Made by a program: the position numbers and the translations under genes
The notes under the pieces: model-generated
The model's input: only the letters and a program-made list of their open reading frames with translations
The model's database searches: none
Told to the model about the DNA's origin: nothing
Shown: piece by piece, positions 49,710 through 52,425 of the stretch
How the letters are laid out: every line of letters starts with the position of its first letter
Position numbering within the stretch: position 1 is the stretch's first letter
Source of the DNA: Escherichia coli
GTDB taxonomy: Bacteria > Pseudomonadota > Gammaproteobacteria > Enterobacterales > Enterobacteriaceae
DNA: 64,000 bases
NCBI RefSeq assembly: GCF_002854065.1
Contig: NZ_CP024147.1
Direction: 5' to 3' (one strand)

Positions 49710-51227
49710 TTATTTCACCGGACGCATCGCCGGGAACAGAATAACGTCGCGGATGGTATGGCTGTTGGTGAACAGCATTACCATACGGTCGATGCCAATC
49801 CCCAGACCTGCTGTCGGCGGTAAGCCATGTTCCAGTGCGGTAACGTAATCTTCATCGTAGAACATCGCTTCGTCGTCACCTGCGTCTTTCGCGGCAACCT
49901 GATCCAGGAAGCGTTGCGCCTGATCTTCCGCGTCATTCAGCTCGCTAAAGCCGTTACCGATTTCACGACCACCAATGAAGAACTCAAAGCGGTCTGTGAT
50001 TTCCGGGTTAACGTCGTTACGACGCGCCAGCGGAGAAACTTCTGCCGGATATTCAGTAATGAAGGTCGGCTGAATCAGATGTGCTTCTGCCACTTCTTCG
50101 AAGATCTCGGTAACGATACGGCCCAGACCCCAGCTCTTCTCAACGTGGATACCGATAGATTCAGCAATCGCTTTTGCAGAGTCGAAGTTGTCCAGATCCG
50201 CCATGTCGGTTTCCGGGCGATATTTCTTGATCGCTTCACGCATGGTCAGTTTTTCGAACGGTTTACCGAAGTCCAGCGTCACGTCGCCGTAGGTCACTTC
50301 CGTCTTACCGAGAATATCCTGTGCCAGAGTACGGAACAGCGATTCGGTCAGCTCAATCAGATCTTTGTAATCTGCGTAAGCCATATAGAGTTCCATCATG
50401 GTGAACTCTGGGTTATGACGTACGGAAATACCTTCGTTACGGAAGTTACGGTTGATTTCGAATACACGCTCGAATCCACCAACCACCAGACGCTTGAGGT
50501 ACAGTTCCGGCGCGATACGCAGGTACATGTCGAGATCCAGCGCGTTATGGTGGGTGATAAACGGACGCGCAGCGGCACCGCCTGGGATCACCTGCATCAT
50601 CGGCGTTTCAACTTCCATAAAGCCGCGGTTCACCATGAACTGGCGAATACCAGAGAGGATCTGCGAGCGCACTTTAAAGGTGTTACGGGATTCATCGTTA
50701 GAGATGAGATCCAGATAACGCTGACGATAGCGCGCTTCCTGATCCTGCAAGCCGTGGAATTTATCCGGCAGCGGACGCAGTGCTTTGGTCAGTAGACGCA
50801 GCTCGGTACAGTGGATAGACAGTTCGCCGGTTTTGGTTTTGAACAGTTTACCTTTCGCGCCGAGGATGTCGCCGAGGTCCCATTTTTTGAACTGCTCGTT
50901 GTAAACGCCTTCCGGCAGATCGTCACGGGCAACGTACAGCTGAATGCGACCGCCAACGTCCTGCAGGGTAACGAAAGACGCTTTACCCATAATACGACGG
51001 GTCATCATGCGGCCAGCAACGGCGACTTCGATGTTCAGCGCTTCCAGTTCTTCGTTCTCTTTGCCGTCGAATTCTGCGTGCAATTGGTCAGAGGTATGAT
51101 CGCGACGGAAATCGTTCGGGAAGGCAATCCCCTGCTCGCGCAGGTTCGCCAGCTTCTCACGACGCGTTTTCAGTTCATTGTTAAGATCGACTACCGCGTC
51201 AGCGCCCTGTGCGTGTTGTTCAGACAT
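49710..51227 (-). CDS. lysS: Lysyl-tRNA synthetase (class II)
   Basis: 505-aa ORF with class II aaRS motifs. Confidence 0.97.
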
Positions 51228-51236
51228 GTTGGTTCC

Positions 51237-52335
51237 TCATAACCCTGCTTTCAAACTTGCTTCGATAAATTGATCCAGGCTGCCGTCCAGCACGGCCTGC
51301 GTGTTGCGGGTTTCTACCCCGGTGCGCAGATCTTTAATGCGGGAGTCATCAAGGACATAAGAACGAATCTGGCTGCCCCAGCCGATGTCGGATTTGTTAT
51401 CTTCCATCGCCTGTTTCTCGGCATTTTTCTTCTGCATCTCCAGTTCATAAAGCTTCGCTTTCATCTGCTTCATGGCCTGGTCTTTGTTCTTGTGCTGGGA
51501 ACGGTCGTTCTGGCACTGGGTCACGATCCCGGTTGGGATGTGAGTAATACGCACCGCAGATTCGGTACGGTTAACGTGCTGACCGCCCGCGCCGGACGCG
51601 CGATAAACGTCAATGCGCAGATCCGCCGGGTTGATTTCGATATCAATATCGTCATCGACTTCCGGGTAAACAAACGCGGAGCTGAACGACGTATGGCGAC
51701 GACCGCCGGAGTCAAACGGGCTTTTACGCACCAGGCGGTGAACGCCGGTTTCTGTACGCAGCCAGCCGTAAGCGTAATCGCCGGAGATTTTGATAGTCAC
51801 GGATTTAATACCCGCCACTTCACCTTCCGACTCTTCGATGATTTCAGTTTTGAAACCACGCGATTCTGCCCAGCGCAGATACATACGCTCAAGCATGCTC
51901 GCCCAGTCCTGTGCTTCCGTACCGCCAGACCCCGCCTGAATATCGAGGTAGCAGTCGGCGCTGTCATATTCGCCAGAGAACATACGGCGGAACTCAAGCT
52001 GCGCTAGTTTTTCTTCCAGGGCGTCGAGTTCAGCAACGGCTTCGTTAAAGGTTTCTTCGTCGTTAGCTTCTACAGCCAGTTCCAGCAGACCAGAAACATC
52101 TTCCAGTCCCTGTTTCATTTGGTCGAGGGTGTCGACAACGGCTTCGAGGGAGGAACGCTCTTTACCCAGCGCCTGTGCGCGTTCGGGTTCGTTCCAGACA
52201 TCCGGCTGTTCCAGCTCGGCGTTTACTTCTTCCAGACGCTCTTTCTTGGCGTCGTAGTCAAAGATACCCCCTAAGAACGTCGGAGCGTTCCGTGAGGTCC
52301 TGAATGCGATTATTTACCGGATTAATTTCAAACAT
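51237..52335 (-). CDS. prfB: Peptide chain release factor 2, with programmed +1 frameshift
   Basis: Codons 1-25 at 52335-52261 (ATG ... AGG GGG TAT CTT) then in-frame TGA; a +1 shift at CTT-T (skipping 52260) joins the 1023-nt frame 52259-51237; GGQ motif in the product ([11 protein letters not shown]). Confidence 0.95.
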
Positions 52336-52425
52336 GGTCTGATTTCTTTTATTGAGCTAGTCAAAATGCGGTGATAAGAGCGGGATTGTACCCAATCCAC
52401 GCTCTTTTTTATAGAGAAGATGACG

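Follow-up and report, generated by a model that had tools for sequence, protein, structure and literature searches.

The recJ-prfB spacer

The window analysed here, the whole of a 64,000-nt stretch of Escherichia coli DNA, is chromosomal, and its positions 52301-52460 are identical to K-12 MG1655 (window position + 2,983,947 = NC_000913.3 position). The 251 bases around the hairpin that concerns us have a match in 5,425 of 5,426 complete E. coli genomes, once in each, at a site annotated with prfB and recJ. All local genes lie on the minus strand, as a first-pass annotation made from the sequence had already recorded for the two neighbors of the hairpin, recJ and prfB.

49710-51227, minus strand: lysS
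51237-52335, minus strand: prfB, in two joined pieces (the known frameshift)
52426-54159, minus strand: recJ
54165-54875, minus strand: dsbC
54900-55796, minus strand: xerD

The spacer between recJ and prfB is 90 nt long (52336-52425). As expected, prfB carries the classical RF2 programmed +1 frameshift site (AGGGGGUAUCUUUGAC), on the minus strand at 52255-52277.

The hairpin that the first-pass annotation placed in this spacer is real, and the sequence given for it needs only small corrections. Read on the plus strand, it consists of AGAGCG (52377-52382), GGATTG (52383-52388), the loop TACC (52389-52392), CAATCC (52393-52398), a bulged A (52399), and CGCTCT (52400-52405); the stem is indeed interrupted, but it starts at 52377, and the start given as 52378 was one base late. 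An additional A-U pair (52376-52406) brings the stem to 13 bp. The run of six T (52405-52410) was correctly noted, but its first T is the last base of the stem, so that the layout is either CGCTCT followed by T5 or CGCTC followed by T6; the annotated 12-bp stem ending in CGCTCT and followed by T6 counted one T twice. Read as minus-strand RNA, the element is AAGAGCG-U-GGAUUG-GGUA-CAAUCC-CGCUCUU.

Predicted folding energies are -20.0 kcal/mol (z = -6.1) for the minus-strand RNA and -19.3 kcal/mol (z = -4.6) for the plus-strand RNA, and none of 200 dinucleotide shuffles is as stable on either strand. Equally stable 40-nt plus-strand segments nonetheless make up 0.4% of the whole window, at 27 distinct loci; the hairpin is therefore nonrandom yet not unique in the window. 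A generic promoter and terminator scan picked out the inner 6-bp stem alone, on the plus strand; over the region it returned 2 terminator-like sites versus 2.7 in shuffled sequence, with no excess.

A hairpin inside the prfB promoter

The following minus-strand features of the spacer are needed below; conservation refers to an alignment of 63 distinct sequences from the Enterobacteriaceae.

52333-52335, minus strand: prfB start codon, preceded by a leader of 42 nt counted from the mapped start
52360-52372, minus strand: start of the prfB leader, ACCGCAUUUUGAC, nearly invariant in the 63 sequences
52367-52377, minus strand: mapped RNA 3' ends, with peaks at 52372 (MG1655 3036319) and 52369 (MG1655 3036316), from the TRS tables (PMC10687069)
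52376-52406, minus strand: inverted repeat, a 13-bp hairpin with one bulge and a 4-nt loop, from folding and compensatory changes
52377 (MG1655 3036324), minus strand: prfB-lysS transcription start, from the SMRT-Cappable-seq operon table (PMC6131387)
52378-52384, minus strand: putative GC-rich discriminator CCCGCUC, the lower 3' arm of the hairpin, placed from the -10 and start-site positions
52385-52390, minus strand: -10 hexamer TACAAT, spanning the hairpin loop and 3' arm, with the start site 8 nt downstream
52405-52410, minus strand: A6 run (plus-strand T6), comprising the 3' half of the -35 element and the first spacer bases
52408-52413, minus strand: -35-like hexamer TATAAA, matching TTGACA at 3 of 6 positions and separated from the -10 hexamer by 17 bp
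52426-52428, minus strand: recJ stop codon TAG, with the hairpin beginning 19 nt downstream

The hairpin and the promoter occupy the same DNA: the 5' arm falls in the promoter spacer, the loop and 3' arm in the -10 element, and the lower 3' arm in the GC-rich discriminator. Bases that are invariant across the 63 sequences spell out a σ70 promoter (TATAAA, 17 bp, G at -14, TAnnnT). In the -35 columns, T11 and A15 are invariant and A14 and A16 are at least 90% conserved; T34, A35, and T39 of the -10 hexamer are invariant, as is G32, the G at 52392, which lies two bases upstream of the -10 hexamer and is numbered -14 by the hexamer convention. A TAnnnT -10 element thus stands at the right distance from the mapped start of prfB-lysS, and the conserved -35-like and -10 elements, together with a start mapped 8 nt downstream of the hexamer, identify a σ70 promoter for prfB, which a consensus promoter scan did not call. 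This overlap was missed in the first-pass annotation; the element lies inside the prfB promoter.

The A6 run has a double affiliation. Its last two A residues pair with the UU at the foot of the stem, and the alignment columns A14, A15, and A16 that fall within it vary little or not at all. The T6 seen on the plus strand is no more than the complement of this promoter A-run, which covers part of the -35 element and the spacer.

Part of the prfB leader ACCGCATTTTGAC is also among the invariant columns, and the start of the leader (ACCGCAUUUUGAC) is more conserved across the 63 sequences than are the hairpin arms. A TTGAC in the leader was considered as a second -35 element and rejected, there being no -10 element at a usable distance downstream.

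Transcript starts and ends at the stem foot

Both boundaries that meet at the hairpin, the prfB start site and the recJ 3' ends, are already present in published tables. SMRT-Cappable-seq gives a prfB-lysS transcript on the reverse strand from 3036324 to 3033612 (PMC6131387); its start, at 52377, is the 3' foot of the hairpin, and prfB's own mRNA therefore lacks the hairpin. The same study lists the operon variants dsbC-recJ and xerD-dsbC-recJ alongside a read-through dsbC-recJ-prfB transcript.

In the TRS tables (PMC10687069), two data sets place 3' ends of minus-strand RNA at MG1655 3036314-3036324. The peaks lie at 3036319 and 3036316 (R-bar 0.53 and 0.89), each data set has three replicate p-values, ranging from 4e-5 to 6e-15, and the entry in the second is classed as "Alternative primary in TU, recJ". 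These peaks fall in the tail UUAUCACCG, 4 and 7 nt beyond the end of the 13-bp stem, and the ends lie within 8 nt of the prfB start site. RNAs ending at 52369-52372 are nonetheless upstream transcripts rather than products of the prfB promoter, because the latter would be only 6-9 nt long; such abortive prfB transcripts, considered as a source of the 3' ends, were rejected, since they would escape sequencing or mapping. Also rejected was the stalling of polymerase against a promoter-bound polymerase, which is expected to leave ends far upstream of +1 and not at +6 to +9.

A σE study groups xerD-dsbC-recJ-prfB in a single induced unit, in agreement with partial read-through. The curated Term-seq tables of Adams 2021 hold no 3' end at 3036xxx on either strand, and the minus-strand end is accordingly a weak one; their Rho table has no Rho termination region at 3036xxx. 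In the Ettwiller Cappable-seq supplements, the text of which may be incomplete, no coordinates matched in either genome version.

The fallback offered in the first-pass annotation, a weak recJ terminator with a suboptimal U-tract, fits the minus-strand recJ 3' ends and the coexistence of stop and read-through variants; the absence of this end from the Adams Term-seq lists counts against it.

Conservation in the Enterobacteriaceae

Eighty recJ loci from Enterobacteriaceae were fetched and their spacers extracted, yielding 63 distinct 64-nt segments that were aligned. When the E. coli structure is imposed on the alignment, 76.7% of cells are paired, versus at most 50% when the partners are slid by 1-3 columns, and cells in which both partners have changed number 71, versus 23.9 in shuffles (none of 500 reaches 71). 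Individual pairs switch among GC, AU, and GU, with counts of 19/17/17, 29/27/4, and 35/12/2 for three of them. Lineages differ in the sequence of the arms and keep their complementarity, as in GAGCG/CGCTC, GGGCG/CGCCC, GGGCCCGG/CGGGCTC, and CGTAAA-CCGG/CCGG-TTTACG. On these counts the pairing of the hairpin is under selection. Folded one by one, 57 of the 63 sequences give z < -2 on the sense strand and 51 of the 63 on the antisense strand. RNAalifold returned no consensus structure for all 63 rows because bulges shift the register; it recovered the hairpin from the first ten rows and from the first three alone.

Several lineages depart from this plan. In Buttiauxella and Cedecea, the CCGC of the leader joins a longer stem that is followed by AUUU(U) on the sense strand, with UUUUU (Buttiauxella) or AUUUU (Cedecea) on the antisense strand; in these two genera the element looks bidirectional. 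The 182-nt spacer of Superficieibacter electus (L048:4235-4416) has a terminator of its own close behind the recJ stop codon, an A-run/hairpin/U-run arrangement in which AAAAU and GUAUUUUU flank a strong, separate hairpin; of the embedded hairpin only 4 bp are left, with TATAAA, TACAAT, and the leader retained. Intestinirhabdus alba (L025) shows a similar partial decay of the embedded hairpin behind an inserted GC-rich hairpin. Such decay sets the hairpin apart from promoter function and ties it to the ending of transcripts, an argument that draws on one or two lineages.

Other spacers have grown by insertion. Three Citrobacter loci (L006, L011, and L012) have spacers of 217-218 nt, with an insertion of ~127 nt carrying long inverted repeats between the recJ stop codon and the promoter/hairpin block, which is intact; going by the ERIC primer sequences, the insertion resembles an ERIC (enterobacterial repetitive intergenic consensus) element. 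In one Raoultella and two Enterobacter-labelled loci (L045, L054, and L059) with 122-nt spacers, an extra hairpin, GCCGTCA...TGACGG, lies just after recJ and is preceded by AAAAA, giving a hairpin plus U5 on the antisense strand only, and thus a second antisense-looking terminator motif within one spacer.

A probable leaky recJ end nested in the prfB promoter

We posit that the element is probably a leaky, noncanonical recJ terminator or a stem-loop that protects the recJ 3' end, acting on the minus strand and nested in the prfB-lysS promoter. Transcripts from the xerD, dsbC, and recJ promoters would pass the recJ stop codon, whereupon the 13-bp stem-loop would fold; a fraction of them would stop in the U-poor tail UUAUCACCG, 4-7 nt beyond the stem, and the remainder would read through into prfB. 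The hairpin could (i) be a leaky recJ terminator or, equally, (ii) block 3' exonucleases and so fix the end of recJ mRNA. The same 34 bp of DNA form the core of the prfB-lysS σ70 promoter: the -35 element TATAAA; a 17-bp spacer whose upstream half, past the shared A-run, is the 5' arm; the -10 element TACAAT in the loop and 3' arm; the discriminator in the lower 3' arm; and the start at the foot of the stem. We infer that the 3' ends are produced by termination and not by trimming, and ending upstream transcripts at the hairpin would shield the prfB promoter from incoming polymerases. Release and exonuclease trimming are indistinguishable with the present data.

The first-pass annotation had read the element from the opposite strand, as a terminator-like hairpin that could mark the 3' end of an antisense or small RNA. 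On such a reading, an antisense RNA starting in prfB, or an unannotated small RNA, would end on the hairpin plus U6, and recJ would be kept free of antisense transcription. On sequence grounds the plus strand does make the better and more canonical intrinsic terminator. A stem of -19.3 kcal/mol leads directly into a T-run with a T-score of 4.5, versus 2.2 for the sense tail; at least 5 of the first 6 tail bases are T in 47 of the 63 relatives, and the antisense hairpin reaches z < -2 in the 51 noted above, whereas on the minus strand no U-rich tract follows the stem and none of the 63 sequences has at least 5 T in the first 8 bases of the tail. In Buttiauxella and Cedecea the element looks symmetric, its stem standing between an A-run and a U-run, which points the same way, and a plus-strand role could coexist with a minus-strand one, making a bidirectional terminator. 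Wobble pairs and energies are ambiguous as to strand: the lower stem favors sense, with 35 sense G-U cells but just 7 that are sense A-C; the two apical pairs, with 64 sense A-C cells, run the other way and favor antisense G-U; and the mean energy of the hairpin only is -14.0 for sense versus -13.2 for antisense, the sense fold being the more stable one in 35 of 63. Against the plus strand, its U-run is interrupted in Salmonella, in Klebsiella, and in part of the Citrobacter and Kluyvera sequences, a plus-strand RNA would carry a lower-stem A-C mismatch beside the U-run in 17 of the 63, and the A-run that encodes the U-run is accounted for by invariant -35 positions. No plus-strand 3' end near MG1655 3036357 is found among the TRS entries listed or in the Adams Term-seq tables, both thresholded lists; the consensus scan finds no plus-strand promoter-like site in 51500-53500; no plus-strand gene is present at the locus; an Rfam search at a permissive E-value matched no family to the hairpin (the sole match, IS009 inside prfB at 52063-52117, is at chance level, with E = 2.6 and 14 bits versus a gathering score of 117); and in the literature we found no paper that names an RNA in the recJ-prfB spacer and none that describes the prfB promoter. 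The hairpin is assigned to the minus strand because ends map there, transcription across it is known, and the plus strand has no gene, promoter-like site, RNA family, or listed end. We regard a plus-strand terminator as unlikely; given thresholded lists and a layout that is canonical by sequence, the role is unsupported rather than refuted.

The repeat could also act as DNA, either as a palindromic operator bound by a dimeric prfB regulator or by shaping the spacer and discriminator, with the RNA hairpin as a by-product. Its position exactly between the -35 element and +1 would suit such a role, as would the constraint that the -10 element and discriminator place on the 3' arm. What is conserved, however, is complementarity and not a half-site sequence, as the four pairs of arms cited above illustrate; G-U wobbles, meaningful for RNA only, are tolerated, the promoter elements persist in Superficieibacter without the repeat, and RNA 3' ends map to the foot of the hairpin. 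We consider a DNA-level element improbable. The exonuclease stop is of a different kind: a sub-variant of the preferred explanation, with the same strand and the same hairpin, whose likelihood is contained in that of the leaky recJ end and does not add to it. Read-through RNA would be cut in the A/U-rich prfB leader and trimmed 3' to 5' back to the stem-loop, which would stabilize recJ mRNA. The sense strand lacks a U-tract, the ends spread from the stem foot to ~10 nt downstream, and a read-through dsbC-recJ-prfB transcript exists; moreover, Dar and Sorek 2018 (PMC6061677) describe precise steady-state 3' ends immediately downstream of stable stem-loops that lack a U-rich tail and protect against PNPase and RNase II. 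The transcripts of that study are Rho terminated further downstream, whereas the Adams table lists no Rho region at the recJ end, where an essential translated gene, moreover, lies within 42 nt. The tail also begins with UUAU, and A-U pairs extend the stem as they do in weak intrinsic terminators. Taken as the sole source of the ends, trimming is possible, and we hold it only tentatively.

Within the framework of a leaky recJ end, the nesting may itself be functional: polymerases finishing recJ would release RNA at prfB +5 to +9 and recycle into prfB-lysS initiation, and the element would in addition block antisense transcription, constituting a conserved two-way insulator-promoter module. This is a speculation to which we give very little credence.

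Relation to known elements

Canonical E. coli intrinsic terminators share with the recJ end a GC-rich stem-loop, here 19 nt past the stop codon, with an A-run upstream and with 3' ends that map, on the strand of the gene, a few nucleotides beyond the stem. Unlike them, the recJ end has the sense tail UUAUCACC instead of a U-run and terminates only partially; its U-run belongs to the opposite strand, which has no known gene or transcript.

Bidirectional intrinsic terminators typically lie between convergent genes; they are said to comprise an A-run, a hairpin, and a U-run, and reportedly emerged from SEnd-seq work by Ju and colleagues in 2019. The symmetric stem at the recJ end, with an A-run on one side, resembles these elements, and the A5-stem-AUUUU arrangement of Buttiauxella and Cedecea reads as a terminator both ways, but recJ and prfB are codirectional and there is no documented use of the second strand.

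Overlapping terminator and promoter signals have a precedent in the E. coli frd terminator/ampC attenuator, and there, as here, a single short spacer both closes the upstream unit and opens the downstream one. The ampC start precedes the frd/ampC hairpin, which attenuates ampC, whereas prfB starts at the 3' foot of the hairpin and the downstream mRNA does not contain it. The rrnB P1 type represents σ70 promoters with a GC-rich discriminator; the prfB promoter is similar in its TAnnnT -10 element, 17-bp spacer, and GC-rich stretch from -10 to +1, and in lying upstream of translation-factor genes, but differs in its poor -35 element.

When sequence alone is scanned, a T-run behind a hairpin is no evidence that the strand in question is transcribed: in the recJ-prfB case, the T-run is the mirror image of the A-rich -35 region of a promoter, and the hairpin serves the other strand. 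Within a 90-bp spacer, 34 bp hold two signals, one that closes the stress-inducible xerD-dsbC-recJ unit and one that opens the essential prfB-lysS unit, and both have been kept in evolution by compensatory changes. We found no paper in the literature discussing a terminator-promoter overlap at recJ-prfB. The recJ-prfB hairpin is ordinary E. coli operon punctuation and not a sign of an antisense or small RNA, and it opens no new question; the overlap may be of use in engineering the locus, for example when prfB is recoded or amplified.

A further RNA 3' end is given in the TRS tables within recJ itself, on the minus strand at 53540-53552 (MG1655 3037487-3037499), where a predicted hairpin is followed by UUUUU; it may be a site of premature termination or processing in the recJ coding sequence.
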